Shown piece by piece: positions 8,367 through 59,695 of a stretch of DNA of 64,000 bases. A model generated the notes under the pieces. That model was not told the DNA's origin. It saw only the letters and a list, made by a program, of their open reading frames with translations, and searched no databases. The position numbers and the translations under genes are program-made. Where the stretch lies: the NCBI RefSeq assembly GCF_048403405.1, contig NZ_CP183136.1, one strand, 5' to 3'. The stretch is from Escherichia coli. GTDB taxonomy: Bacteria > Pseudomonadota > Gammaproteobacteria > Enterobacterales > Enterobacteriaceae. Position 1 is the first letter of the stretch. Each line of letters begins with the position of its first letter.

Positions 8367-8588
8367 GTGAGTGATGAAGCCGATGAAGCATATTCAGTGA
8401 CAGAACAACTGACCATGACAGGAATAAACCGGATACGCCAGAAAATAAATGCTCATGGTATTCCTGTTTATCTCTGTGAAGCATGCGGAAATCCTATTCC
8501 GGAAGCCCGGCGGAAAATATTTCCCGGTGTGACGTTGTGCGTTGAATGTCAGGCGTATCAGGAAAGACAGAGAAAACATTATGCATAA
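8367..8588 (+). CDS. traR: TraR, DksA/TraR-type zinc-finger protein
   Basis: 73-aa ORF with C4 motif CEACG...CVEC. Confidence 0.9.
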   Translation: MSDEADEAYSVTEQLTMTGINRIRQKINAHGIPVYLCEACGNPIPEARRKIFPGVTLCVECQAYQERQRKHYA

Positions 8589-8747
8589 GTCAGTCGCAGA
8601 ACATAGTGATTTAATTCCGGATGAACATGAGTGGATATTCAGAAAACAGAAATCTTTGTATATGCGCCGGGAAATGGCGCGTTAATTACAGGTATTCCCT
8701 TCATGGCTACCGCATTTCTCGCTTTATTTTTCAACTAAGGAATTCAT

Positions 8748-11375
8748 GTGAATAACCCACTTGAGGCCGTCACTCAGGCGGTTAACTCCCTCGTCACAGC
8801 ACTGAAACTGCCTGACGAATCCGCAAAGGCCAATGAAGTTCTGGGCGAAATGAGCTTCCCGCAGTTCAGCCGTCTGCTGCCGTACCGTGATTACAACCAG
8901 GAATCCGGTCTGTTCATGAATGACACCACGATGGGCTTTATGCTGGAAGCCATCCCCATCAATGGGGCGAATGAGTCCATTGTGGAGGCCCTCGATCACA
9001 TGCTGCGCACCAAACTGCCGCGCGGTATTCCGTTGTGTATCCATCTGATGTCCAGTCAGCTGGTTGGTGACAGGATTGAATACGGGCTGCGTGAGTTCTC
9101 CTGGTCAGGTGAACAGGCTGAACGGTTTAACGCCATTACCCGGGCCTATTATATGAAAGCGGCAGCGACACAGTTTCCGCTGCCGGAGGGGATGAATCTG
9201 CCCCTGACCCTGCGCCATTACCGGGTGTTTATCTCGTACTGTTCTCCTTCGAAGAAAAAAAGCCGGGCCGACATTCTGGAAATGGAAAACCTGGTGAAAA
9301 TCATCCGGGCGTCGTTACAGGGGGCCAGTATCACCACACAGACGGTGGATGCACAGGCCTTTATCGATATTGTCGGGGAGATGATTAACCATAACCCGGA
9401 CTCCCTGTACCCGAAAAGACGTCAGCTGGACCCGTATTCTGATCTGAATTATCAGTGTGTGGAGGACAGTTTTGATCTGAAAGTCCGGGCTGATTACCTG
9501 ACGCTGGGCCTGCGTGAGAACGGCAGGAACAGCACGGCCCGCATCCTGAATTTCCATCTGGCCCGTAACCCGGAAATCGCCTTCCTGTGGAACGTGGCCG
9601 ACAACTACAGCAACCTGCTGAACCCGGAACTGTCCATCTCCTGTCCGTTCATCCTGACGCTGACTCTGGTGGTGGAAGACCAGGTGAAAACCCACAGCGA
9701 AGCCAACCTGAAGTACATGGACCTGGAGAAAAAGTCGAAGACCTCCTATGCCAAATGGTTTCCGTCCGTGGAGAAAGAGGCGAAGGAGTGGGGGGAACTG
9801 CGTCAGCGGCTGGGCTCCGGTCAGTCCTCCGTGGTGTCCTACTTCCTCAACATCACAGCATTCTGCAAGGACAATAATGAAACGGCGCTGGAAGTGGAGC
9901 AGGACATCCTGAACAGCTTTCGTAAAAACGGTTTTGAGCTGATTTCACCGCGCTTTAACCACATGCGCAATTTCCTGACCTGCCTGCCCTTTATGGCCGG
10001 GAAAGGGCTGTTTAAACAGTTGAAAGAGGCCGGAGTGGTTCAGCGCGCAGAGAGCTTTAATGTTGCCAACCTGATGCCGTTAGTGGCGGATAACCCCCTG
10101 ACACCGGCAGGTCTGCTGGCACCCACCTACCGTAACCAGCTGGCGTTTATCGATATTTTCTTCCGGGGGATGAATAACACCAACTACAACATGGCGGTCT
10201 GTGGCACCTCCGGGGCCGGTAAAACCGGGCTGATACAGCCACTTATCCGCAGCGTGCTGGACTCCGGAGGCTTTGCCGTGGTGTTCGACATGGGGGATGG
10301 ATACAAGTCCCTGTGTGAGAACATGGGCGGGGTGTATCTGGACGGTGAAACCCTGCGTTTTAACCCGTTTGCGAACATCACCGATATTGACCAGTCAGCG
10401 GAGCGTGTCCGTGACCAGTTGTCAGTGATGGCCAGCCCCAACGGTAACCTGGATGAAGTGCATGAAGGTCTGCTGTTGCAGGCGGTCAGAGCCTCCTGGC
10501 TGGCCAAAGAGAACAGAGCACGTATTGATGACGTGGTGGATTTCCTGAAAAACGCCAGTGACAGCGAGCAGTATGCCGAGTCACCGACTATCCGCAGCCG
10601 TCTGGACGAAATGATTGTGCTGCTTGACCAGTACACTGCCAACGGCACTTACGGCCAGTATTTTAACTCTGATGAGCCGTCCCTGCGGGATGACGCAAAA
10701 ATGGTGGTGCTGGAGCTGGGCGGACTGGAAGACCGTCCGTCACTGCTGGTTGCGGTGATGTTCTCCCTGATTATCTACATCGAGAACAGGATGTACCGCA
10801 CGCCGCGTAACCTCAAGAAACTGAACGTTATTGATGAAGGCTGGCGTCTGCTGGACTTCAAAAATCACAAGGTCGGTGAATTTATTGAGAAAGGCTACCG
10901 TACGGCCCGCCGTCATACCGGTGCCTATATCACCATCACACAGAACATCGTCGACTTTGACTCTGATAAGGCCTCCAGTGCTGCCCGCGCGGCATGGGGT
11001 AACTCCTCCTACAAAATTATCCTCAAACAGAGTGCGAAGGAGTTCGCGAAATACAACCAACTGTATCCGGACCAGTTCCTGCCACTGCAGCGCGACATGA
11101 TTGGTAAGTTTGGTGCGGCCAAAGACCAGTGGTTCAGTTCCTTCCTGCTGCAGGTGGAAAACCATTCCTCCTGGCACCGTCTGTTTGTGGACCCGTTAAG
11201 CCGCGCCATGTACAGCTCTGACGGCCCGGATTTTGAGTTTGTGCAGCAGAAGCGTAAAGAGGGGCTGAGTATTCATGAGGCAGTGTGGCAGCTGGCGTGG
11301 AAGAAGTCAGGGCCGGAAATGGCTTCGCTGGAAGCCTGGCTGGAAGAACATGAGAAATACAGGAGTGTGGCATGA
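8748..11375 (+). CDS. traC: TraC, T4SS ATPase (VirB4-like)
   Basis: 875-aa ORF, GTG start, Walker A GTSGAGKT; matches F TraC along its length. Confidence 0.97.
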   Translation: MNNPLEAVTQAVNSLVTALKLPDESAKANEVLGEMSFPQFSRLLPYRDYNQESGLFMNDTTMGFMLEAIPINGANESIVEALDHMLRTKLPRGIPLCIHLMSSQLVGDRIEYGLREFSWSGEQAERFNAITRAYYMKAAATQFPLPEGMNLPLTLRHYRVFISYCSPSKKKSRADILEMENLVKIIRASLQGASITTQTVDAQAFIDIVGEMINHNPDSLYPKRRQLDPYSDLNYQCVEDSFDLKVRADYLTLGLRENGRNSTARILNFHLARNPEIAFLWNVADNYSNLLNPELSISCPFILTLTLVVEDQVKTHSEANLKYMDLEKKSKTSYAKWFPSVEKEAKEWGELRQRLGSGQSSVVSYFLNITAFCKDNNETALEVEQDILNSFRKNGFELISPRFNHMRNFLTCLPFMAGKGLFKQLKEAGVVQRAESFNVANLMPLVADNPLTPAGLLAPTYRNQLAFIDIFFRGMNNTNYNMAVCGTSGAGKTGLIQPLIRSVLDSGGFAVVFDMGDGYKSLCENMGGVYLDGETLRFNPFANITDIDQSAERVRDQLSVMASPNGNLDEVHEGLLLQAVRASWLAKENRARIDDVVDFLKNASDSEQYAESPTIRSRLDEMIVLLDQYTANGTYGQYFNSDEPSLRDDAKMVVLELGGLEDRPSLLVAVMFSLIIYIENRMYRTPRNLKKLNVIDEGWRLLDFKNHKVGEFIEKGYRTARRHTGAYITITQNIVDFDSDKASSAARAAWGNSSYKIILKQSAKEFAKYNQLYPDQFLPLQRDMIGKFGAAKDQWFSSFLLQVENHSSWHRLFVDPLSRAMYSSDGPDFEFVQQKRKEGLSIHEAVWQLAWKKSGPEMASLEAWLEEHEKYRSVA

Positions 11376-41256: not shown

Positions 41257-41820
41257 TCATCCCCCTACAACCACTCCCATTCGTTTAAGTATTTTTAAAC
41301 CTGCTTCCTGTGGTATCTTTATAGATAAGATCCTGTTTATCTCAGGATTTATATCGAGACCTTCTGTCATTGAAAAATCACAGTGAGACAAATCAGAATG
41401 TCTGAACTCTGTATTATTAAACTCCGAACCAGTAAAATCAGATTTACGAAGGTCTGTTTCCTCAAATAAACAATCACGGAAGCGACTGGATAAAAAAATA
41501 GATTTCTGTAACCGTAAACTAATAAAATCAACAAATCTCAAATCACAATTTACAAGAGAAAAAGTACAGGGAAACATAATGTCTGCTGCATTTACTCCTT
41601 GTAATAAACAATCTTTGAATTCACAGTCAATAAGTTTAAAAAAATTAAGTTTTAAATTCTTTATTGAGCAGTTTACGAAGCGACATTTTTCGAACTCACA
41701 ATCGCGAAAGTTAAAGTTGTCAAGCTGTATTCGTTCAAATATACAATTGTAATAATTTACACCTGATAATTCACTTTCACTGAGGTGTCGTTTTGTGATT
41801 CTTTTTTCTATTATATCCAT
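41257..41820 (-). CDS. mcbG: McbG, pentapeptide-repeat microcin B17 immunity protein
   Basis: 187-aa ORF made of pentapeptide-like repeats; last gene of the operon. Confidence 0.9.
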   Translation of the reverse strand: MDIIEKRITKRHLSESELSGVNYYNCIFERIQLDNFNFRDCEFEKCRFVNCSIKNLKLNFFKLIDCEFKDCLLQGVNAADIMFPCTFSLVNCDLRFVDFISLRLQKSIFLSSRFRDCLFEETDLRKSDFTGSEFNNTEFRHSDLSHCDFSMTEGLDINPEINRILSIKIPQEAGLKILKRMGVVVGG

Positions 41821-41823
41821 GTG

Positions 41824-42555
41824 TCAGTCTCCTGTTCCCATAACTTCTTTAATAAATGCCTTTTCTGGAGTTGTTTCATTATTGGATTGAATAAAATCAC
41901 TCATATCAGAATAACGATTTATACTATTTTTTGAAAGCATATAGAAGGGGATTTTATCTCTTGTTAATTCATCAAAAATATGAGTTGAGAAAAATACAGT
42001 TTTCCCGTCAGCGGTGATCTTATTTATCAGTTCCCATAACATCATTCTGTACTGAATATCAATGCCTACAGTTGGTTCATCCAGTAAAAATAAACGGGCA
42101 TTTTTGCAAAGCGTTAGCATCAAAGATATGATAAGCCAACGCTTCTCTCCATAACTTACCGTGTAAGTCCTTTTACGTCTTATTTTATCATAGCGAATGA
42201 AAAAATTATCATTCCATTTATGATTAAGCTCTGTCCATGCCTGTTTTTTAGTTAACTTATTGAAGCAGCAAATCAAATCAAGAACCTCCTCATTCCTTAG
42301 TGTACCTGAAAGATTTATGACTTGAGGTAGACTTACTAATTCTCCATCAGAGAAATTTCGCTTGAGGGTCCCTTCATAATTACTGACTCCGCCCCTGATA
42401 AGGTTAAAAAGAGTGGTCTTCCCGGCTCCATTTTCTCCAAGCAGACCTATCAACTCTCCCTGCTCAATCTTAAGCGACAGATTATTGAAAACAGGGGGTA
42501 AATTTACTTTATATGAAAAGCTCAGAGAGTTGATTTCTAAAAGAGGTATGGTCAT
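41824..42555 (-). CDS. mcbF: McbF, ABC transporter ATP-binding protein (microcin B17 export/immunity)
   Basis: Walker A GENGAGKTT; overlaps mcbE. Confidence 0.9.
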   Translation of the reverse strand: MTIPLLEINSLSFSYKVNLPPVFNNLSLKIEQGELIGLLGENGAGKTTLFNLIRGGVSNYEGTLKRNFSDGELVSLPQVINLSGTLRNEEVLDLICCFNKLTKKQAWTELNHKWNDNFFIRYDKIRRKRTYTVSYGEKRWLIISLMLTLCKNARLFLLDEPTVGIDIQYRMMLWELINKITADGKTVFFSTHIFDELTRDKIPFYMLSKNSINRYSDMSDFIQSNNETTPEKAFIKEVMGTGD

Positions 42556-43277
42556 TGAGAACTCCAGACTGGCTCAGTTTTGAAGGTTAGTGCTGAAATA
42601 ATACTTATGATTAACATTATACTATAGAAAAATATCGTCATCAGAGACAACTCCTGATCTGACTGGAGTATTGTAGAATAGATGGCGATAGGATTAACCT
42701 GATTTATCCAGTAAACGATCCCCTCATTATATTTTAATGATACAATTCCTGATACCATACAGACAGTTATTAATACAGAATAGATAGTGCTGGCTGTTTG
42801 GAATGTGACTCTGAACGATGCCATGAAAGTGAGTGAAACCATCATAAATGCATTTATGTATATCGATTTTAAAATAATCATTACTATTTGATAATCTGGA
42901 CTTGCCTGGAATCCTGTTAGTACGACTAAAATGAAAAAAAACACATACAAAATAGACATGATAAGTGAGGCTATTAATTGAGAACGAATAAATAATAGTC
43001 GACCATCCATATTATGCACGAAGGTAGCAATAAAACCACTTTCTCTTCTTCCGACCAGATACAGACAGTAATTAAACAGAACAACAGAAAAAGAAATGTA
43101 GCCTACAAACCATGATATTTGTTTTCCGAGCCATGCTGTATCACCATAATGAAGTTCAATTTCATTGAAATGAAGGAAAAAGAACAACACTGTAGGTGAC
43201 ATAATTGTCCATATTAAGCTGAAAGGGGTTCTGATTTGTTCCATCAGAAAAATTATCGCCATTTTTAATGTAACCAT
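42552..43277 (-). CDS. mcbE: McbE, ABC transporter permease (microcin B17 export/immunity)
   Basis: 241-aa polytopic membrane protein directly upstream of mcbF. Confidence 0.9.
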   Translation of the reverse strand: MVTLKMAIIFLMEQIRTPFSLIWTIMSPTVLFFFLHFNEIELHYGDTAWLGKQISWFVGYISFSVVLFNYCLYLVGRRESGFIATFVHNMDGRLLFIRSQLIASLIMSILYVFFFILVVLTGFQASPDYQIVMIILKSIYINAFMMVSLTFMASFRVTFQTASTIYSVLITVCMVSGIVSLKYNEGIVYWINQVNPIAIYSTILQSDQELSLMTIFFYSIMLIISIISALTFKTEPVWSSQ

Positions 43278-43286
43278 TTGTTATCC

Positions 43287-44477
43287 TTATGGGAATGGTA
43301 CCATCTTTGATTCTCTGACTTTAATACCGTCCCCGGTATGGTAAATTTTATTATTAATGTTTATTGCACCTGAGTTATTCATATGAAGGAAAAAATCAGG
43401 GCTTACTATTTTTGTGTACCAGACAAGGCTGTTACTTACTCTTTCCCTGGCATAGTAAACAAAAATATTATCAGAAATTTGTTGAAGATAGTTTAATAAA
43501 TTTGTGTCTGACGTAATATTTTCCTCAAGCGTTAACTTGACATCATCAGACAGTAGTACCGTATTTTCACACAAATCCGTAAACGACTCGTACTTGTTGC
43601 ATGACATAAAGTGACGCTGGTAACTATCAATGATGTCATCATCAGTATAACCGCCAATAAGAAAGTTGTGCAGGCATATATACGATTGCCACAATTCCAC
43701 TACGGATTTACAAAGTGCTTTTTTCAGACTATTAGCATAGGATAATCCGGTACTGTATTTTATTCGACTGATTTTGTTTTTTGTGCCATACAGGGTTAGT
43801 ACTGCGTGTCCAGGAGCTCCGGGCAGGGTGATATCGAAAATCCTGATATCTCCTTCTGACCTGAGAGCCAGTAAAATCTCATCTATATGATTTATGCCTG
43901 TTACTATTTCACTGGATATTTCAGTATTGGCTTTTCCCTGTAACCAGTAAAGAAGGAGGGACTGTCTCTCCATAAATTCACACAAGGAACCTTCTATGGC
44001 ATCGTTCAAACTACCATGAAAGCTACATCCGCATGTATCTCTGTCAGGATAAAATTTCAGATCATCTGCAGCGGTTATATTGTCGAGTGCAATTATGACT
44101 GCAGGTATTTCTTGTTGTTCAAGGCTAAACAGATTAAAGGCTCTGACCGTTTTAAATTTATGGGTTATGATTTCATCGCGGGTCAGTGATGAGATCTGAA
44201 AAAATGCTTCGGTAAAAGCCTTTGCAGCAGATGGAGGCATCATCTCATATAATGTTTTCTGACCACCGGTGACTATCTCATTAAAAAAATGACGGCGTTC
44301 AAAATATTCACCTATTGCCCCCTGAATTGACTTCAGAGTTTCACCGGCCGCGCTGGCTGGTGTAATACGCTCATAGTCCCATATCTGAGAAAACGTTGGC
44401 ATATTTCTGTTCAGTTTTGGACTCATGGCCATTGTGGCCGGCCATGCGGACATAAGGTTACTGTAGACATTTATCAT
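43287..44477 (-). CDS. mcbD: McbD, YcaO-type cyclodehydratase of microcin B17 synthetase
   Basis: 396-aa ORF in operon position; matches McbD. Confidence 0.9.
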   Translation of the reverse strand: MINVYSNLMSAWPATMAMSPKLNRNMPTFSQIWDYERITPASAAGETLKSIQGAIGEYFERRHFFNEIVTGGQKTLYEMMPPSAAKAFTEAFFQISSLTRDEIITHKFKTVRAFNLFSLEQQEIPAVIIALDNITAADDLKFYPDRDTCGCSFHGSLNDAIEGSLCEFMERQSLLLYWLQGKANTEISSEIVTGINHIDEILLALRSEGDIRIFDITLPGAPGHAVLTLYGTKNKISRIKYSTGLSYANSLKKALCKSVVELWQSYICLHNFLIGGYTDDDIIDSYQRHFMSCNKYESFTDLCENTVLLSDDVKLTLEENITSDTNLLNYLQQISDNIFVYYARERVSNSLVWYTKIVSPDFFLHMNNSGAININNKIYHTGDGIKVRESKMVPFP

Positions 44478-45276
44478 CGTTTACATCTCCAAAAAACTGA
44501 ACGATCAGTGGCGCTACAGTCCTCTGATCCAGATTCATTGTTTTTGCTACGTATGAATCGGTATATCCCGCCCATACCCGGTTTTTCAGTCCTATTTGAT
44601 CTGCAACCAATACTGCGTTCTGATACATCGAACCTGTTTCCATTAAGGCCATCCGGTATCCTCTGTAGCGATATTTGAACAAAGCTTTTTCAAAAATAAT
44701 GCAATAGACGAGAGCAAAATGGGGTTTACCAAGACGTTCCGAATCCCCACCGGACAGGCTTCGGTAGAGTGACTGAGTATTACATGTAGCAACAGGTTCC
44801 AGTGCCTGACTTAGCGGCAGGTAGTGATAAACATTAGTTCCTGCCTGCCAGTTTTCTGTATTTTCAGATAATCTGCATAAAAAAACTTCAATCGGGTACA
44901 ATGCCCCCCCAGAAGGATAAGGTCTTCTTACAGAGCCAGGATCAGGTGAGCTGAATGCATTGACTAATAACTTTTCAATAGTACGAATGGAAAGTTTATT
45001 TTTGTCGCAAAAGTTTATTCCTGATGGGAGCCTTTCACGACTAAAATTATGTGATGAGGATATGTTTATTACGGAGCTGAAACCTGGCCTGAAGAGAACT
45101 TCTTTATTTTCAAATTTCTCCAGATGGGCAAGAGGTACCGCGGACACGAAAGTTCGTTCAGCAAATTCGGGGAGGGAAGCAAAGTTACCTCTGACATGAA
45201 AATCTTTAACAATGGCCAGAACTTCAGGATCTGTGTAATGCGTTACTTCCACTAAAGAGAGTTCGTGTTTTGACAT
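44458..45276 (-). CDS. mcbC: McbC, FMN-dependent dehydrogenase of microcin B17 synthetase
   Basis: 272-aa ORF in operon position; matches McbC. Confidence 0.9.
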   Translation of the reverse strand: MSKHELSLVEVTHYTDPEVLAIVKDFHVRGNFASLPEFAERTFVSAVPLAHLEKFENKEVLFRPGFSSVINISSSHNFSRERLPSGINFCDKNKLSIRTIEKLLVNAFSSPDPGSVRRPYPSGGALYPIEVFLCRLSENTENWQAGTNVYHYLPLSQALEPVATCNTQSLYRSLSGGDSERLGKPHFALVYCIIFEKALFKYRYRGYRMALMETGSMYQNAVLVADQIGLKNRVWAGYTDSYVAKTMNLDQRTVAPLIVQFFGDVNDDKCLQ

Positions 45277-46065
45277 GTTATCTCTCCAGACAGCTGCAAG
45301 CCTGCCAGTGAATTACCGGCTCTTTACATAAAATACAGGTGATTAAATCAGCGCTAACAGATGACATAAAGTTATCGACATGACTTTTAACCAGTGAAGT
45401 ACCTGTCAACTCCTGAAGTCGCCGTTTTATTAAATGATAGCTGAATCCTCTTTCTGATTCGCCTAAAGCCAATGCTGGTAGTGTCATTTGGTATTTTTTC
45501 AGTAACTGAAGTAAGTTTGCCCAGGACATTTCGTTACGTCTGAAGCTTTTTTCTTCCCTGCTCAGCCATCTATCTATATGACAAAAATGGCAGGGAGTAC
45601 CAAGATCAGGTGAATATACTCCATCTATCCTGAATGACTCCTTTAGGTAGTAGCTTTGGATGAAGGCAACACCAGGGTTACTTTCAAATTTTGAATAGAT
45701 TCTTTTTACAATGTCTGAATGATAGTTTTCGAGATGTAACCAGATTAGTGTTGAATCGCTCACATTAATATTATTATCTTTTATATCAATGATATGAGAA
45801 ACAAAAACACCATCAGATTTCCATTGTTCCCGGGCATTACTGAAAAGATGTGGAACATCGCTTATTATGACTGAGTTTACCCAGAGAGGTGATGTTTTCG
45901 TTTTATTTATCACGCCTGTGGTAATAAGAAACTCTTTGCCCTTGTCTTTATCAATAAGCGATTCGTCCAGTAGTTTATCAAGGAGGTATTCAGAAATAAT
46001 ACCCTGTTTGGATCGTAGGCTTTCGAGTACTTTTTTCATTCCCTCATGTGTAATGTCTACTGAAG

Positions 46066-50335: not shown

Positions 50336-50347
50336 GGATAACAAAAG

Positions 50348-50660
50348 ATGTCGCCGGGCTCCTCTTTTTACTGCGCCGGCTGACGCGGCGCGGCATAAAC
50401 GCTGCCTGTGGTCAGTGTCCCGCGTCCGGTGGGCACGGGACGGGCGCTTTTACCGCTCCCGGCTGGCGTCGGTGACAGTGTACGCCAGCCTGTCGCCCTT
50501 TTCTGATGAACGCCCTTCAAGCCGCTTTCGCGGCATAGCCTTGCCGTCAGAAAGACGACGGCTGCGGTATTCCACGGTCGGCCTGACCCGTTACCGGACG
50601 CGGTGAACAGCCCACAGGCAGCGGGGAACGGGCGCCACAGGGGCGCCCTCCCGATGCTCC
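50348..50660 (+). repeat. Large repeat, family A copy 1 (about 315 bp, GC-rich, structured); candidate Frpo-type single-strand promoter
   Basis: Near-identical to 51652-51970; ORF-track entries 50277-50606 and 51567-51911 are the same sequence translated. Confidence 0.7.
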
Positions 50661-51603: not shown

Positions 51604-51651
51604 AGTATGACGGAGACGGGCGGGCAACCGCCCGTTTCTTTTCCGACAAAG

Positions 51652-51970
51652 GATGTCGCCGTGCTCCTCTTTTTACTGCGCCGGCTGACGCGGCGCGGCA
51701 TAAACGCTGCCTGTGGTCAGTGTCCCGCGTCCGGCGGGCACGGGGCGGGCGCTTTTACCGCTCCCGGCTGGCGTCGGTGACAGTGTACGCCAGCCCGTCG
51801 CCCTTTTCTGATGAACGCCCTTCAAGCCGCTTTCGCGGCATAACCTTGCCGTCAAAAAGACGACGGCTGCGGTATTCCACGGTCGGCCTGACCCGTTACC
51901 GGACGCGGTGAACAGCCCACAGGCAGCGGGGAACGGGCACCACAGGGGTGCCCTCCCGGTGCCCTCTGTA
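51652..51970 (+). repeat. Large repeat, family A copy 2; candidate single-strand promoter upstream of the methyltransferase operon
   Basis: Near-identical to 50348-50660. Confidence 0.7.
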
Positions 51971-51986
51971 AGAGAAGGAGTTTCGT

Positions 51987-52670
51987 ATGTCCCGTTTTGT
52001 CCTCGGTAACTGCATCGATGTTATGGCCCGTATTCCTGATAACGCCATTGATTTCATCCTCACCGACCCGCCATATCTCGTCGGTTTCCGTGACCGTTCC
52101 GGGCGCACCATCGCCGGCGATAAAACCGATGAGTGGCTGCAACCGGCCTGTAATGAAATGTTCCGCGTGCTGAAAAAAGACGCGTTAATGGTGAGCTTCT
52201 ACGGCTGGAACCGCGTCGATCGCTTTATGGCCGCCTGGAAAAATGCGGGATTCAGCGTTGTTGGTCACCTGGTCTTCACCAAAAACTATACATCGAAGGC
52301 CGCATATGTGGGCTATCGCCACGAATGCGCCTACATCCTGGCAAAAGGCCGTCCACGTCTGCCACAAAACCCGCTGCCGGACGTGCTGGGCTGGAAATAT
52401 TCGGGCAATCGCCATCACCCGACGGAAAAGCCCGTTACCAGCCTGCAACCGCTGATTGAGAGCTTCACACACCCGAACGCAATTGTGCTGGACCCGTTTG
52501 CAGGCAGCGGCTCAACCTGCGTCGCCGCCCTCCAGTCCGGACGCCGGTATATCGGTATCGAGCTGCTTGAGCAGTATCACCGTGCCGGGCAGCAACGCCT
52601 TGCCGCCGTGCAACGGGCCATGCAGCAGGGGGCCGCGAATGATAACTGGTTTATGCCGGAGGCTGCGTAA
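51987..52670 (+). CDS. Orphan DNA amino-methyltransferase (N6-adenine or N4-cytosine)
   Basis: DPPY catalytic motif followed by FAGSGST AdoMet motif; no adjacent restriction endonuclease ORF. Confidence 0.85.
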   Translation: MSRFVLGNCIDVMARIPDNAIDFILTDPPYLVGFRDRSGRTIAGDKTDEWLQPACNEMFRVLKKDALMVSFYGWNRVDRFMAAWKNAGFSVVGHLVFTKNYTSKAAYVGYRHECAYILAKGRPRLPQNPLPDVLGWKYSGNRHHPTEKPVTSLQPLIESFTHPNAIVLDPFAGSGSTCVAALQSGRRYIGIELLEQYHRAGQQRLAAVQRAMQQGAANDNWFMPEAA

Positions 52671-52892
52671 ATGAACTATGCAGGACACGAAAAACTGCGC
52701 GCCGAAGTGGCGGAGGTGGCCAATGCCATGTGCGACCTGCGTACAACCATGAATGAGATGGAGCAGCGGTACAGCTTTAATGCCGACACCCTGCCGGAAC
52801 GTCTGGTGCGTCAGACGCTGTTTCGCGCAAACCGCCTCCTGATGGAGGCATATACCGAAATTCTGGAACTGGATGCGTGCTTTAAAGATTGA
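52671..52892 (+). CDS. Hypothetical small protein
   Basis: 73-aa ORF immediately after the methyltransferase gene. Confidence 0.5.
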   Translation: MNYAGHEKLRAEVAEVANAMCDLRTTMNEMEQRYSFNADTLPERLVRQTLFRANRLLMEAYTEILELDACFKD

Positions 52893-52905: not shown

Positions 52906-53340
52906 ATGTACGGAACATGCGAAACGCTATGCCGGGAGCTGGCAGTAAAGTATCCGGGAGACATGCCGCTGATGCTGGTTATCTGGTCCCCGGAAGAGAT
53001 TCAGGCCCTCGCTGACGGAATGGATATTTCCCTGTCCGATCATGAAATCAGAACCGTCCTGGCGCGCCTGGAGGACATCCCGGAAGACCAGCGGACTGAA
53101 TCCGGTATTTCTTCCGGCGTGGCGATGGAGATCATCAATAACGTGAGCGAAAACCGCCAGGTGACCGTCCCTGCTGAACTGCTGGCGTCCCTGATTCAGA
53201 CCGCTGAACAGGCATTGTGGAAACGTGAATGGGCCGCCCGGGATCATGGCCTCGCCGTCCCGGAATGCGTCACCCGCCGTCAGGCGGTGATTAATCAGGC
53301 CCGCACCCTGCTGAAAAACAACAGACACGAAAACGACTGA
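52906..53340 (+). CDS. Hypothetical protein (DUF1380-like), paralogue of 55048-55467
   Basis: Shares MY.T..E...E and RQVTVPA motifs with the paralogue; start chosen at the MYGTCETL methionine. Confidence 0.55.
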   Translation: MYGTCETLCRELAVKYPGDMPLMLVIWSPEEIQALADGMDISLSDHEIRTVLARLEDIPEDQRTESGISSGVAMEIINNVSENRQVTVPAELLASLIQTAEQALWKREWAARDHGLAVPECVTRRQAVINQARTLLKNNRHEND

Positions 53341-53385
53341 TGTTATCGCCGCCTCCGGGCGGCGATTCAGGGAGAACGATTAATC

Positions 53386-54162
53386 ATGAACGAAAACACA
53401 ACGCTGAACGCACTGATTTGTCGCCACGCCCGTAACCTGCTGCTGGCGCAGGGCTGGCCGGAAGAGACGGATGTTGACCAGCGAAATCCGAACCATCCGG
53501 GCTGGATCAGCATTTACGTGCGGCTGGATGCGCCCCGGCTGGCGACGTTACTTATCAACCGTCACGGCGGCGTACTGCCGCCGGTCCTGGCGTCTGCCAT
53601 GCAAAAACTGACCGGAACCGTGGCGGAACTTGTACTGTCCGGCAGCCAGTGGCAGGCGCTGCCGGTACTTCCGGCAGACGGAACGCAGGTGTTTTTCCCG
53701 TATGCCGGTGAATGGCTGACGGAGGAAGAAATCAGGGCAGTTCTTGATGCGGTGCGCAATGCAGTACGAAGCATCTGTTACCAGGTGGCAGACGATGCGC
53801 GGCGTATCCGGGCGGCGCTGACCACCACCGGTCAGACGTTGCTGACCCGGCAGACGCGCCGCTTTCGTCTGGTTGTGAAGGAAAGCGATTACCCCTGCTG
53901 GCTTGATGAAGATGACGAAAATCTGCCCGTGGTGCTCGATGCCATTCTGAACCGTGGCGCCCGTTTTTCCTCTGTGGAAATGTACCTGGTCTGTGAGTGT
54001 GTGGAGCATATCCTGGCCAGTGGTCTGGTCTGTGATGTGCTGCGTATACCGGATGAACCGTCCCGTCGCTGGTTTGACAGGGATATTCTGCGGGAGGTTG
54101 TTCTGGAGGCACGGGATGAAATCCGCAGCATGGCGGATGCACTGGCGAAAATCAGGGGCTGA
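53386..54162 (+). CDS. Hypothetical leading-region protein, 258 aa
   Basis: Clean ORF in the same-strand array. Confidence 0.5.
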
Positions 54163-54575
54163 TGATGGCGGGGAAAATCCCCGCCTTTTTCCTGCCGGTC
54201 CCCGGACAGAGCACAAAGGAAGTCGCCGCCGGCTCCGCTTTACCCGGCCATGCGGGGCATGGCCTTGTGGGGGTTCAGTTATGTGGCCTCAGCGTCGTGT
54301 GCGGGCTGTGCCGTGCCTCCATCGTAGCCGGGCTTCTGCGGGCGGGTTGCAAGGTAAGGTGAACCGCTGCGGTCACCCGGTCCCTCCTTCCCGTCTGCCG
54401 TGATTTTCCGGTCGTTCACCCGCTCAGATTTCGCGGTCTCACCCTCCAACTCCCGCCAGCCGTGTGCGTCAGGCTGCGGCTTCCCTTGCGCCCTTGCAAC
54501 CCTGCAGGCCCGGCAAAGATGGAGGCACGGCACCGCCCGGTGTCGCGGAATATGTGAACAACGGAGGAAAACATC

Positions 54576-55001
54576 ATGCAATATGCGAAACCTGTCACTC
54601 TGAACGTTGAAGAGTGTGACCGTCTCTCCTTTCTGCCTTACCTGTTTGGCAACGATTTTCTGTATGCCGAGGCGTATGTGTACGCGCTGGCGCAAAAAAT
54701 GATGCCGGAATATCAGGGAGGCTTCTGGCATTTCATCCGCCTGCCGGACGGTGGCGGTTACATGATGCCGGATGGCGACCGTTTTCATCTGGTCAACGGT
54801 GAAAACTGGTTTGACCGCACTGTGAGTGCTGATGCCGCAGGTATCATCCTGACTTCCCTTGTGATTAACCGCCAGTTGTGGCTGTACCACGACAGCGGGG
54901 ATGCGGGACTGACACACCTTTACCGGATGCGCGATGCGCAGTTGTGGCGTCACATCGAATTTCACCCCGAATGCAATGCGATTTACGCGGCACTGGACTG
55001 A
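54576..55001 (+). CDS. Antirestriction protein of the ArdB/KlcA family (likely)
   Basis: 141-aa ORF with size and sequence character of KlcA-type proteins; family from recall only. Confidence 0.6.
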
Positions 55002-55047
55002 TTAACGGACGGGGCGGCGATGCCGCCCCTGTAAAGGAGACGAGAAC

Positions 55048-55467
55048 ATGTACTGTACTGTTAAAGAAATTATCCGCGAAGTGCTGGATACAGACGTGCC
55101 GGACAGTGAATGCGTTTTTGCCGTGGTGCTGACCCGTGGGGATGTGCGTCACATAGCCCAGGACTGGAGTCTGACAGACGATGAGCTGGAAACCGTCATG
55201 CAGCGGCTGGACGATGCCTTTGAGCATGGTGCTGATGTCAGCATTGTTCACGACGTTGTTTGTGAACTGATGGAAGAAAAGCGCGCCAGCCGTCAGGTGA
55301 CAGTCCCGGCGGTGATGCTGGAAAAAGTGATGGCGCTGGCAGGCAGTGAAATGAAGCGCCTGTATGCCGTCGGGAGTGAGAACGGGGGCGACGGTGACGC
55401 ATTTGTCAGGGAAGAACGTGAGATTATGCGGGTGATGCGTCAGGCGCTGGACGGGGAGAATGGGTAA
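55048..55467 (+). CDS. Hypothetical protein (DUF1380-like), paralogue of 52906-53340
   Basis: 139-aa ORF sharing motifs with the paralogue. Confidence 0.55.
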   Translation: MYCTVKEIIREVLDTDVPDSECVFAVVLTRGDVRHIAQDWSLTDDELETVMQRLDDAFEHGADVSIVHDVVCELMEEKRASRQVTVPAVMLEKVMALAGSEMKRLYAVGSENGGDGDAFVREEREIMRVMRQALDGENG

Positions 55468-55658
55468 TGAATATCAGCAAGGAAACCCGCGAAATTCTGC
55501 GTAATTACAGGGCCGTGATTAATGCGCGGCGTCGTGAAATGGGGCAGAAACCGCTCACCACCGCGCAGATTGTTGATGAAATATGTGATTTTGTGGTGAA
55601 TCAGCAGGCTGTTTTCCTCGGTGGTCACTACATCCTTCAGGGCAGCAGGCACAGGTGA
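55467..55658 (+). CDS. Hypothetical small protein
   Basis: 63-aa ORF overlapping the upstream stop codon. Confidence 0.4.
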   Translation: MNISKETREILRNYRAVINARRREMGQKPLTTAQIVDEICDFVVNQQAVFLGGHYILQGSRHR

Positions 55659-55789: not shown

Positions 55790-56395
55790 GTTTTTTCCTG
55801 ATGTTATGTTTCTGTGGTTACTGTTCTTCTTCTTCCTCTTCTTTCCGTTCCTCTCCTGTTTATGCCTTTTCCGGGCGTCCCCCTGGCGGGGCGGGCTGTC
55901 GTGAACGGAGCCAGCGGAGCTGTCTCCGCCCTGGCGGGCTTCCATCCCTGACGCAAAACCCCGGGTTTGCAGCGACCGGAACGGTCGCGCCACCCCTGTC
56001 GCGCCGTGGCCTGCGCTCCCGGCATCCCGGCAAAAAGACGCCGGGATGTAAGGAGCAACGCCGTTTCGCAAACCGCGCTTCACGTCGTTGCAGCGGGTCC
56101 CTGCTCATTGCCTGCCGGGTGCCACACACCCGTATGAGTCCCTGTCGCCGGGGGCTGATACAGCCACAACCTGCCGCACTGACTGTCCAGGGTAAATGAA
56201 CAGCCCACAAAATTTTTTACCCAAAACCCGGTAAAAAATTTTGCGTTCTGCCCAGGACAGGTGCGTCAGGCCGTGGCAGTGATGCCCCTTGCGGCGAAGG
56301 TTCTCAAACGGGTGAAGTTCATACCACAGGGAATACAGCAGCAGGTTCCCGCGAAACGTCAAAACCGCGGCTCCCGAAACTCAACGGGTGATGTT
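55790..56395 (+). repeat. Large repeat, family B copy 1 (about 600 bp); Frpo-type single-strand promoter candidate
   Basis: Long near-identity with 59040-59695, including hairpin CAAAATTTTTTACCC..GGGTAAAAAATTTTG. Confidence 0.7.
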
Positions 56396-56625: not shown

Positions 56626-56856
56626 ATGACTGTAAGCATTGTTTCACCTTCCGCAGCGGCTGTAAAGCCCCGCCGTCATCCCCGTTTCAGACGCGAAGAC
56701 ATCCCCGCGCCGGAACTTGACCCCGTGCTGAAAGCCTTCGGGCGACACATTGCCCGGAGTTTTCGCCGGGGGCGTGGTGTACACATCCCCGCCATGAAAA
56801 ACACGGCCTTCGGGCAGGTGCTCCGCACACTCGAACTGAAACGCGCTTTTAACTGA
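56626..56856 (+). CDS. Hypothetical small basic protein
   Basis: 76-aa ORF, first after the family-B repeat. Confidence 0.4.
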   Translation: MTVSIVSPSAAAVKPRRHPRFRREDIPAPELDPVLKAFGRHIARSFRRGRGVHIPAMKNTAFGQVLRTLELKRAFN

Positions 56857-56907
56857 TGAGGTGAGCCGCCCCGCGAGGGGCGGCAACAGACGGAAGGAGA
56901 ACATTTT

Positions 56908-58269
56908 ATGACATTAGCAGCAATCACCATGACCGCCCCGGAAGCCGCCAGCCCGGTGCAGATGTACCGCGCGACCTACTCACCGGATGACAACAAACTG
57001 CGCCTGTATGCCGTGTCACGTCTTGACCCGGAGACGTATAAAAAAGTGCATGATGCCGGTTTTCGCTGGGCACCAGAACAGGCGCTGTTTGTGGCTCCAG
57101 CCTGGACACCGGGCCGGGAAGACGTGCTCCTCTCACTTGCCGGAGAGATTGAGGATGAAGACAGCACGCTCGCTGAACGTCAGGAAGCACGGGCGGAGCG
57201 GTTTACCGGATACAGCGGAAAGCGGGCCAGTGAATCCGCACAGGCACTTGATGAAGTGGAAAGACTGGCCGCGATGATCCCGCCCGGTCAGCCCATTCTT
57301 GTGGGGCATCACAGCGAACGCCGCGCCCGTCGTGATGCGCAGCGTATTGAAAACGGCATGAAACGTGCCGTGATGCTCTTTGAACGTGCGGAATACTGGG
57401 AAGAACGTGCGCGGTCGGCACTGCTTCACGCGAAGTATAAAGAACGTCCGGACGTTCGCTGGCGTCGTATCAAAAAAATCGAAGCTGATTTGCGCAAGGC
57501 TGAAAAGACCATCGCACAGTCGCAGAAATATCTGACGATGTGGCGGGCTGAATCGCTGGATCTGAATATGGCAAAACTCATCAGCAGTCATGACCATATC
57601 AGCGCCTGTTTCCCGCTGGATACGTATCCGCGCCCGGCAGAAAAAAGCCAGTATGAAGGAAGTCGATCGTTATGGTCGGCCCTGGATGATGACATCATCA
57701 CCACGGAGCAGGCCCGCGAAATTGCGATCCGCTGTCATGAACGGCAGATTCAGCATCAGCAACGCTGGGTTAACCACTATCAGAACCGCCTGATCTATGA
57801 GCGTGCCATGCTGGACGAAAGCGGCGGCGTGGTTACCCGGACACAGGATTTTGAGCCGGGCGGACAGGTTTTCAGCCGGGGCGAGTGGCTGACCATCATC
57901 CGCGTGAACAAAAGCAACGGGGCGGTGAGTTCAGTCACAACGCCGAATTACAGTTTTCTCGGGTACAGCGGCACGATGAAAGTGACGCCCGATCGCATCA
58001 CGGACTACAAAGCACCATCGGCAGAAGAGGCTGCCGTCGCCAGCCAGGCCGCGAAGCGTCCGCCGGTAGTCAACTATCCGGGGGAAGGTTTCCGGGAAAT
58101 GACAAAGGCGCAGTGGGCCGCCCTGCCCCGGGACTGTAAGGCCGTGCGCAGTGTGGCAGAGACAGAAGACCACGGGGCATACCGCTACCGCCGCACAATG
58201 GACAATAATTTCCGCCTGGTGAATGTGTATATCACCGACATGAAAATCACGGAAATCCCGCAGAAATAA
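56908..58269 (+). CDS. Hypothetical leading-region protein, 453 aa
   Basis: Clean ORF with coiled-coil-like central region; no domain recognised. Confidence 0.55.
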   Translation: MTLAAITMTAPEAASPVQMYRATYSPDDNKLRLYAVSRLDPETYKKVHDAGFRWAPEQALFVAPAWTPGREDVLLSLAGEIEDEDSTLAERQEARAERFTGYSGKRASESAQALDEVERLAAMIPPGQPILVGHHSERRARRDAQRIENGMKRAVMLFERAEYWEERARSALLHAKYKERPDVRWRRIKKIEADLRKAEKTIAQSQKYLTMWRAESLDLNMAKLISSHDHISACFPLDTYPRPAEKSQYEGSRSLWSALDDDIITTEQAREIAIRCHERQIQHQQRWVNHYQNRLIYERAMLDESGGVVTRTQDFEPGGQVFSRGEWLTIIRVNKSNGAVSSVTTPNYSFLGYSGTMKVTPDRITDYKAPSAEEAAVASQAAKRPPVVNYPGEGFREMTKAQWAALPRDCKAVRSVAETEDHGAYRYRRTMDNNFRLVNVYITDMKITEIPQK

Positions 58270-58315
58270 GGTATATCCCCCCGGGAAATCCCCGGGGGAT
58301 GACGGAGATAATGAT

Positions 58316-58879
58316 ATGCACAGTCAGTTAAAAGAACGTATCCGGCTGATGCGCGCAAGGCTGGATAACGCCGCGCCGGTTGCTGAAATCCGGGCTGAAT
58401 CTCAGCTTTTTGTGACTCCTGCCCCGGTCTGTGATCGCCTGGTGACGCTGGCGGAGATCAGCAACCGTGATCACATTCTGGAACCCTCTGCCGGCACCGG
58501 GGCCATACTGCGGGCGATTCGTCATGTCGCGCCGGGGGCCATGTGTGATGCGGTGGAGATTAACAGCGGGCTGGTCCGGTATCTGCGGGATAATTTTAAC
58601 GGTGTCAGGGTTCAGTGTGGCGACTTCATGGAATGGCAGCCGGTGCAGTATTACAGCCGGATTATCATGAATCCGCCGTTCAGTCACGGGCAGGATATCC
58701 GGCATATCCTGCGGGCTTTTTCCCTGTTGCGTCCGGGTGGTGTGCTGGTTGCCGTCTGTCTGAACGGGCCGCGCCAGCAGGAGAAGCTGTTACCGTTTTC
58801 TGATGTCCGCGAGGTGCTGCCGTGCGGCACATTTGCTTATACCCGTGTTCCGACGATGATTATTCGTCTGCGTGCCTGA
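58316..58879 (+). CDS. Small orphan AdoMet-dependent methyltransferase (probable DNA amino-methyltransferase)
   Basis: EPSAGTG AdoMet motif and NPPF catalytic motif; no adjacent endonuclease. Confidence 0.75.
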   Translation: MHSQLKERIRLMRARLDNAAPVAEIRAESQLFVTPAPVCDRLVTLAEISNRDHILEPSAGTGAILRAIRHVAPGAMCDAVEINSGLVRYLRDNFNGVRVQCGDFMEWQPVQYYSRIIMNPPFSHGQDIRHILRAFSLLRPGGVLVAVCLNGPRQQEKLLPFSDVREVLPCGTFAYTRVPTMIIRLRA

Positions 58880-59039: not shown

Positions 59040-59695
59040 ACTGATGATGTTGTTGTTCCTGCTACTGCTACTGCTACTGCTACTGCTACTGCTACTGCTA
59101 CTGCTACTGCTACTGTTCTTCTTTTTTCTGCTGCTCTGATTACTGTCTGTTTTGTTGTTCTCCTGCTTATGCCTTTTCCGGGCGTCCCCCTGGCGGGGCG
59201 GGCTGTCGTGAACGGAGCCAGCGGAGCTGTCTCCGCCCTGGCGGGCTTCCATCCCTGACGCAAAAACCCGGGTTTGCAGCGACCGGAACGGTCGCGCCAC
59301 CCTTGTCGCGCCGTGGCCTGCGCTCCCGGCATCCCGGCAAAAGACGCCGGGATGTAAGGAGCAACGCCGTTTCGCAAACCGCGCTTCACGTCGTTGCGGC
59401 GGGTCCCTGCCCGTTGTTCTGTCCGGTGCCATTCACCTGTTTAAGCCCCTGTCGCCGGGGGCATAGACAGCCACAACCTGCCGCACTGACTGTCCAGGGT
59501 AAATGAACAGCCCACAAAATTTTTTACCCAAAACCCGGTAAAAAATTTTGCGTTCTGCCCAGGACAGGTGCGTCAGGCCGTGGCAGTGATGCCCCATGCG
59601 GCGAAGGTTCTCAAACAGGTGATGGTGAATACCGGAGGGAACAAAAGGCAGGTCCCCGCAAAACGTCAAAACCGCGGCTCCCGAAACTCAACAGA
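59040..59695 (+). repeat. Large repeat, family B copy 2, upstream of ssb; Frpo-type single-strand promoter candidate
   Basis: Near-identical to 55790-56395 apart from the hexanucleotide tract and a short variable segment. Confidence 0.7.
59059..59115 (+). repeat. Hexanucleotide microsatellite (CTGCTA), about 9.5 units
   Basis: Read directly; absent from the paralogous repeat copy, which has an irregular pyrimidine tract instead. Confidence 0.9.

Follow-up and report, generated by a model that had tools for sequence, protein, structure and literature searches.

Two DUF1380 paralogues in an IncF plasmid leading region

We analysed two small paralogous proteins of the DUF1380 family (PF07128), here termed paralogues A and B, encoded on either side of a KlcA/ArdB-like antirestriction gene in a 64,000-nucleotide (nt) stretch of Escherichia coli contig NZ_CP183136.1, hereafter the window. 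The window comprises the leading region of an IncF plasmid. Its right-hand 24 kb is 99% identical to IncFII/FIA plasmids; the genes surrounding the pair include parM/parR, DUF1281, ssb, a ParB-like gene, psiB, and psiA; and all leading-region genes lie on the + strand, pointing to an origin of transfer (oriT) past the right end of the window. The 3.1-kb block that holds the pair is present in at least 5000 PLSDB plasmids at 90–97% identity, mostly conjugative IncF plasmids of Escherichia, Klebsiella, Salmonella, and Shigella. Its features, with open reading frames (ORFs) given by length in amino acids (aa) and the isoelectric point (pI) of the paralogues, are as follows.

51646..51945, − strand: 300-nt structured non-coding element upstream of the methylase gene, a candidate single-stranded DNA promoter of cassette 1
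51987..52670, + strand: N6/N4 DNA methyltransferase, orthologue of M.EcoGIX (PF01555, E 9.7e-40); first gene of cassette 1
52671..52892, + strand: YubE-family ORF, 73 aa (PHROG 4830), with homologues (PF27407:YubE) in every related locus
52906..53340, + strand: DUF1380 paralogue A (YubF/YcgB type), 144 aa, pI 4.8; matches PF07128 at 177 bits
53386..54162, + strand: YchA/YubG-family ORF, 258 aa (PHROG 8919); last gene of cassette 1
54167..54185, + strand: intrinsic-terminator-like GC hairpin GGCGGGGAAAATCCCCGCC followed by TTTTT, 5 nt past the stop of the 258-aa ORF
54163–54575: spacer of 413 nt between the 258-aa ORF and klcA
54302..54539, − strand (the template, transferred strand): long imperfect hairpin, a fold of ~240 nt at the start of cassette 2
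54576..55001, + strand: KlcA/ArdB antirestriction protein (YubI/YfgB), 141 aa (PF03230); first gene of cassette 2
55048..55467, + strand: DUF1380 paralogue B (YubJ/YcgC/YcjA type), 139 aa, pI 4.45; related to A by BLASTP
55467..55658, + strand: basic ORF, 63 aa, whose ATG overlaps the stop of B by one base (TAATG)

The original prediction, made from the DNA letters without database searches, had described A and B as paralogous ORFs with common motifs that bracket two further ORFs within one operon, and had proposed pairwise alignment and structure prediction as checks. Its coordinates and the paralogy hold. In a single BLASTP comparison A and B share 32% identity and 51% positives over 111 aa (E 2e-10), well beyond chance; both carry the N-terminal MY.T..E motif and the exact heptapeptide RQVTVPA; and between them sit the 258-aa ORF and the KlcA/ArdB ORF, the latter matching PF03230 (Antirestrict) at 92.3 bits against a gathering score of 25. 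For A, the start at 52906 is preferred to the ORF-opening ATG at 52873 because homologues begin with MYGT and because an AGGAG sequence stands a few bases ahead of this start.

Paralogue A matches the Pfam DUF1380 profile over its full length (177 bits, E 2.5e-52, positions 1–137 of 137), while B reaches 21.1 bits (E 3.6e-4) over positions 1–102 only, under the gathering score of 26 bits, and precomputed PF07128 matches of B-type proteins are flagged 'weak'. Despite this sub-threshold score, B is, judged on its sequence, homologous to bona fide DUF1380 members. PHROG 9024 is matched by both A and B (E 1.3e-5 for B), the NCBI name for B is 'DUF1380 family protein', and a joint A+B profile recovers both types as well as intermediates across 259 clusters. 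These 259 clusters, many of them fragments, are all that a search of 1.84 billion cluster representatives returned at E ≤ 0.001, and DUF1380 is a small family. Its hallmarks in alignments are found in both proteins: a length of about 135–145 aa, an N-terminal M-[YF]-G/C-T, a central L-[ST]-D-x-E helix, the R-x-V-T-V-P-A segment, and a C-terminal helical hairpin, the last also seen in the structural model of A. Both proteins are acidic, with net charges of −9 (A) and −15 (B). A six-frame profile scan of the window found exactly these two copies and no third.

Searches of Pfam, NCBIfam, PHROGs, and PADLOC placed A and B in DUF or unknown families only, with no PADLOC hit, and the literature on DUF1380, yubF, yubJ, and related names yielded nothing functional; an mBio paper related to work on pED208 protein translocation makes no mention of them. 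The PDB was searched by sequence and by profile, both with the full-length protein and with its N-terminal and C-terminal halves separately; the only matches were to designed proteins, ankyrin designs, and, below threshold, calmodulin helices (E ~0.09), all of which were rejected as compositional. A phage origin was likewise rejected: despite the PHROG membership, tblastn against 50,697 phage records gave no match.

Two adjacent transcription units with putative hairpin promoters

The paralogues occupy two adjacent transcription units and not one operon as had been proposed, since a terminator-like hairpin follows the 258-aa ORF, a long hairpin fills the spacer beyond it, and this spacer is 95% identical to the F plasmid spacer that carries the single-stranded promoter ssp2. 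The terminator-like hairpin at 54167–54185 is also conserved in F. The ~240-nt hairpin at 54302–54539 has a predicted folding energy of −77.4 kcal/mol (z −6.6), and none of 200 shuffled sequences was equally stable; some of the differences from the F spacer, which likewise separates the 258-aa gene from klcA, are paired changes in the stem. Published work on ssp2 places this promoter between yffB and yfgB, which lie 770 nt apart, and has it drive the klcA homologue yfgB. We therefore equate the hairpin at 54302–54539 with ssp2 (class 2) as its putative counterpart. No convincing −35/−10 boxes could be picked out in it by eye. In three related loci (L002, L006, and L007) klcA is likewise preceded by a structured spacer (z −3.8 to −4.1) whose base is again GCCGTGCC...GGCACGGC.

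A comparable element precedes cassette 1, where the − strand of 51620–51986 folds at −109.5 kcal/mol (z −6.6). By position, the element at 51646–51945 would match the promoter class found upstream of M.EcoGIX in pESBL and F. A second 300-nt copy, 97% identical, lies at 50341–50640 upstream of a DUF1281 (YubB-like) gene (direct repeat family D1), and the two are probably copies of one hairpin-promoter type.

Cassette 1 has the order hairpin, methylase, YubE, DUF1380-A, YchA, terminator; cassette 2 has an ssp2-like hairpin followed by KlcA, DUF1380-B, and the 63-aa ORF. In each cassette, one of the two paralogues is a constant component. The directly abutting methylase TAA and YubE ATG suggest coupling at that junction, and the one-base TAATG overlap between B and the 63-aa ORF suggests translational coupling. 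The 63-aa ORF is conserved in F (94%) and L007 (43%), and the 258-aa ORF had no match in Pfam, NCBIfam, PADLOC, or the PDB.

Both cassettes have close relatives on plasmids studied by experiment. The F plasmid encodes YubF (YcgB/YfcB) and YubJ (YcgC/YcjA/YfeC) at NC_002483: 54965–55519 and 57227–57649, both called 'DUF1380 family protein' in RefSeq. It shares the order methylase, 73-aa ORF, DUF1380, 258-aa ORF, 413-nt spacer, antirestriction gene, DUF1380, 63-aa ORF, and its proteins are 92% (A), 93% (B), and 99% (KlcA) identical to those of the window, with point substitutions only. The same eight-gene block occurs on the IncI1 plasmid pESBL-EA11 (NC_018659: 54782–58453), whose methylase M.EcoGIX (54782–55465) is 95% identical to the methylase here, although pESBL-EA11 has an IncI1 backbone with the MOBP relaxase NikB, and ardA and other genes lie further toward oriT. 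Early induction, transcription starts, and class 2/3 hairpin promoters were measured on pESBL-EA11, where KlcA and M.EcoGIX belong to two distinct operons, each strongly induced and each with a class 2/3 hairpin promoter to itself; this was shown for pESBL and, by homology, for F, and the induction is at operon level (Wen et al., NAR 2025). In the literature, these operons are transcribed off the entering single strand minutes after its arrival, and the same study reports single-stranded promoters to be inactive in double-stranded form. M.EcoGIX itself is a single-strand-specific methylase that protects against restriction on entry (PMC7736820). According to the ssp2 work, deletion of ssp2 lowers F transfer at least 21-fold into wild E. 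coli; the drop is 36-fold for recipients with EcoGIII, a type II system, and 5-fold for recipients with EcoKI, and exchange of ssp2 for another hairpin promoter restores transfer into the EcoGIII host. The unit that ssp2 drives is needed when the recipient is restriction-proficient.

Conservation of the pairing and divergence of the proteins

The association of each paralogue with its cassette extends to divergent members of the family, in which DUF1380 is 22–37% identical to the window proteins. Among these contexts, every A-type protein follows the methylase–YubE pair (L002, L003, L004, L006, L007, L009, and L010), and the genes of all B-type and third-clade proteins come after a PF03230 gene (L002/3, L005, L006, L007/8, and L011). 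Because the arrangement is conserved at such low identity, the split into A and B cassettes is old. YchA is optional, being present in L004 and L007 and absent from L002, L003, and L006. The named sources of DUF1380 are all Enterobacterales, and every context examined is plasmid-like. Identities between the window and the distant plasmids differ widely along the block:

Methylase: 70–83%
YubE: 52–60%
KlcA: 40–44%
YchA: 41–44%
DUF1380-A: 24–33%
DUF1380-B: 22–37%

On these figures the DUF1380 genes come out as the fastest-evolving part of a positionally rigid block. Fast divergence is usual in proteins engaged in host–parasite conflict.

The same divergence could also be read as weak constraint, in which case the DUF1380 genes would have no role in entry and would be maintenance or fitness genes, or near-neutral passengers, retained only through their place in a block kept for the methylase, KlcA, SSB, and PsiB. 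Several observations suit such an account: sequence constraint is low (22–37% identity compared with 70–83% for the methylase), no phenotype has been described, the 258-aa neighbour is dispensable in some lineages, and in-frame deletions that fuse A to the 258-aa ORF occur naturally. Yet the ORFs are intact and have good ribosome-binding sites, their length, motifs, and position are conserved across deep divergence, and the two types are among the largest leading-region-enriched families, encoded in the orientation that permits transcription on entry (Samuel et al., Nature 2024). We consider the passenger account unlikely.

The fusions have a ready origin in imperfect 15-nt direct repeats, gcccgcaccctgctg (53299–53313) and gcccgtaacctgctg (53428–53442), which are spaced 129 nt apart; a deletion bounded by them yields, in frame, the 375-aa DUF1380A–YchA fusions present in public assemblies (cluster P0436 on 15 contigs, P0241 on 5, and several other clusters). 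Either the fusions reflect a tolerated deletion or they hint that the two proteins work jointly. Around the conserved cassettes, L006 and L007 bear differing extra anti-defence cargo. In L006 (a contig of GCA_048191805.1, at 8370–8870 and around), ArdA, PsiB, an N6_Mtase-like gene, and HicAB lie nearby; in L007 the additional cargo is an Hha-like gene, together with two ORFs of 262 and 111 aa between YchA and klcA.

Predicted structure

The AlphaFold model of A, built on a 28-sequence alignment, has seven helices and no strands, with a confidence (predicted local distance difference test, pLDDT) of 85. Five short helices span residues 5–82, the RQVTVPA segment is coil, and two long antiparallel helices follow at 90–113 and 120–142. 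The structure prediction that had been proposed as a check thus returned an all-helical protein with no known relative.

This fold bears on the published naming of paralogue B, whose family has been listed as a putative DNA methyltransferase. 'Adenine-specific methyltransferase' is the UniProt name of 1082 of the 3145 members of family 14 of Samuel et al. (Nature 2024), and 'putative DNA-methyltransferase' stands in the legend of Fig. 1c of that paper. The model of the homologous A is, however, all-helical, and the missing beta-sheet argues against a Rossmann-type fold; neither A nor B has a Pfam methyltransferase match; both lack [DNS]PP[YFW] and FxGxG, whereas the adjacent true methylase has both; and 139 aa are too few for such an enzyme. 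We regard a methyltransferase activity of B as extremely improbable, and the names are most simply explained by transfer from the adjoining methylase gene.

In a second model, two copies of A were joined by a 30-residue Gly/Ser linker, with a matching tandem alignment. Here the RQVTVP segment becomes a strand in both copies (residues 85–89 and 259–263). As these are the sole strands in the model, leaving neither any other to pair with, they suggest pairing, and the RQVTVP segment may mediate dimerisation through a two-stranded ribbon.

A ribbon of this kind recalls the ribbon–helix–helix (RHH) proteins, such as CopG, Arc, MetJ, and the C-terminal RHH of HicB. On this alternative, DUF1380 would be a DNA-binding regulator built like HicB, with a sensor or partner domain at the N-terminus and an RHH at the C-terminus; each copy would autoregulate the cassette that encodes it, or silence that cassette after conversion of the plasmid to double-stranded form. 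Several features fit: R-x-V-T-V-P-A-x-x-L followed by two helices is an RHH pattern of strand, helix, and helix, with alternating hydrophobic strand residues and a Pro/Ala helix cap; the only two strands of the tandem model of A may pair; one of 20 C-terminal halves matches the Pfam family RHH_5 (E 0.022); and one copy per cassette would suit one regulator per unit. There is, however, no significant profile or fold match, and no RHH chain appeared in the PDB profile search. DUF1380 differs in its 80-residue N-terminal helical domain, its overall acidity, and its long helices of 19–24 residues. Typical RHH helices are much shorter. Further, the DUF1380 genes are second or third in their units, not first, and the reported inactivity of single-stranded promoters as double strands means that no dedicated repressor is needed (Wen et al., NAR 2025). 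Several members have E/L, P/G, or S/A at the outward strand positions, which are poor for base reading, and we therefore favour a structural ribbon over a DNA-reading one. An RHH-type regulator seems to us improbable.

Proposed role in plasmid establishment

The explanation that we favour, with modest confidence, is that the DUF1380 proteins are early-made helpers of establishment or anti-defence in a broad sense. In the proposed sequence of events, the hairpin promoters on the entering strand would fire and cassettes 1 and 2 would be transcribed early ('zygotic induction'). DUF1380-A would then be made with the M.EcoGIX-like methylase and YubE, and with YchA where present, and DUF1380-B with KlcA/ArdB and the 63-aa ORF. 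The DUF1380 proteins, probably dimers held by a two-stranded ribbon formed from the R-x-V-T-V-P segment, would act through protein–protein binding and be neither enzymes nor methyltransferases. Two forms of this explanation can be distinguished. The proteins could be independent inhibitors of host defences, which would fit their fast evolution, their acidity, and the EcoGIII effect, or they could be partners of the lead protein of their own cassette, which would fit the rigid synteny.

KlcA/ArdB (PF03230) resembles DUF1380 in sharing a cassette, a similar size, similar acidity, and an expected simultaneous production, yet has no sequence or fold relation to it. Activity of KlcA/ArdB is known only against type I restriction, its alleviation in vivo having been published for homologues of the KlcA/ArdB protein encoded here. 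Since KlcA/ArdB is not expected to give protection from the type II system EcoGIII, the ssp2-dependent protection of F from EcoGIII may come from the YubJ-type copy. Alternatively or additionally, both paralogues may be missing partners of the lead proteins. More specifically, DUF1380 could be a new class of dimeric anti-restriction factor or cofactor, a proposal that we make tentatively.

Several points weigh against this explanation. The published phenotypes were obtained at operon or promoter level, none for either DUF1380 protein singly, and are explicable by KlcA and the methylase alone. As regards the partner form, cloned homologues of KlcA/ArdB and M.EcoGIX are active in vivo with no DUF1380 gene beside them (for M.EcoGIX, PMC7736820); the work on pB10/RP4 KlcA and RIP113 ArdB, which act or were tested alone, mentions no DUF1380 partner. 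The dimer ribbon depends on a linker-joined construct of modest confidence (pLDDT 70–83; predicted template modelling score, pTM, 0.48). The idea of an A/B heterodimer finds no backing in the ribbon motif, which does not co-vary between A and B of the same plasmid in the 4 plasmids compared. Finally, the net charges fall well short of those of classic DNA mimics, and DNA mimicry was rejected as a mode of action since the charge is too modest for paralogue A.

Neither the observation nor the hypothesis is new. The pair corresponds to yubF/yubJ of the F plasmid, already catalogued, and the original prediction of plausible anti-defence factors repeats a published one, because both families are listed by Samuel et al. 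(Nature 2024). Supplementary Table 1 of that study gives the largest leading-region-enriched families encoded for transcription from the entering strand, among them family 7 (DUF1380, YcgB/YubF; 3957 members) and family 14 (YcgC/YcjA/YubJ, 'PF07128 family'; 3145 members). The methylase is family 8, KlcA family 9, YchA/YubG (the 258-aa ORF) family 10, and YfcA, by position the 73-aa ORF, family 11. Median distances from oriT are 19 ORFs for family 7, 15 for family 14, and 16 for KlcA. All non-enzymatic families are called 'uncharacterized' there, such families being argued to be probably anti-defence, and families 7 and 14 have no reported homology to known anti-restriction or anti-CRISPR sets, bar a few mis-fused members. 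Beyond the published hypothesis, the anti-defence part of the prediction gains from the leading-region position, the entering-strand orientation, the hairpin promoters, the published early induction, and the loss of transfer on ssp2 deletion; the activity of DUF1380 itself is assigned by neither homology nor experiment.

Where Samuel et al. have two separate families, one a putative methyltransferase, the present analysis has paralogues of one all-helical family, for which the methyltransferase label is unsupported. It also ties each copy to a different anti-restriction lead gene with its own putative entry-activated hairpin promoter, and brings out that the published ssp2/EcoGIII phenotype is not obviously explained by KlcA alone. 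The A and B families are among the fifteen most abundant leading-region-enriched families and are carried by thousands of clinical IncF/IncI1 resistance plasmids; should they prove to act in anti-defence, as factors or cofactors, they would offer a target for interventions that stop plasmids from establishing.

Other features of the window

Downstream of cassette 2, a repeat of ~510 nt occurs at 55807–56315 and 59114–59622, the copies being 90–96% identical, with a − strand fold of z −9.4. The first follows the klcA unit and lies upstream of a unit encoding a 76-aa ORF, a DUF3560 protein, and a methyltransferase; the second lies upstream of ssb. This repeat looks like the Frpo/ssi class of single-stranded promoters. 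Beside the second copy (~59050–59140) is a long simple-repeat tract that reads as poly-Leu/Phe on the + strand and poly-Ser on the − strand; its counterpart in the first copy (~55800–55900) is much shorter, and the tract is possibly length-variable.

The unit between the two copies (56626–58879) comprises a basic 76-aa ORF (56626–56856, pI 12), a 453-aa DUF3560 protein (family 28 of Samuel et al. 2024), and a 187-aa protein resembling small S-adenosylmethionine-dependent methyltransferases. In F, this DUF3560–methyltransferase unit and the second ~510-nt repeat, both present here between the cassette and ssb, are missing, which suggests insertion or deletion by recombination between the repeats. 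Overlapping the start of the 76-aa ORF, the − strand of 56530–56631 matches the Rfam family AS-pc01 (RF02875, 'antisense to pHK01_035') at 79.4 bits against a gathering score of 79, and is flanked by a − strand promoter-like site (56666–56638) and a terminator-like hairpin (56553–56533).

Elsewhere in the window, a low-GC island (0.36–0.43) on the − strand at 41257–46039 holds a gene cluster that resembles the microcin B17 operon in composition: a 253-aa ORF lacking a Pfam match, a nitroreductase-type dehydrogenase, a YcaO cyclodehydratase, an ABC-2 membrane protein, an ABC ATPase, and a pentapeptide-repeat protein. The best plasmid matches at this cluster carry the annotation 'YcaO-like family protein'.

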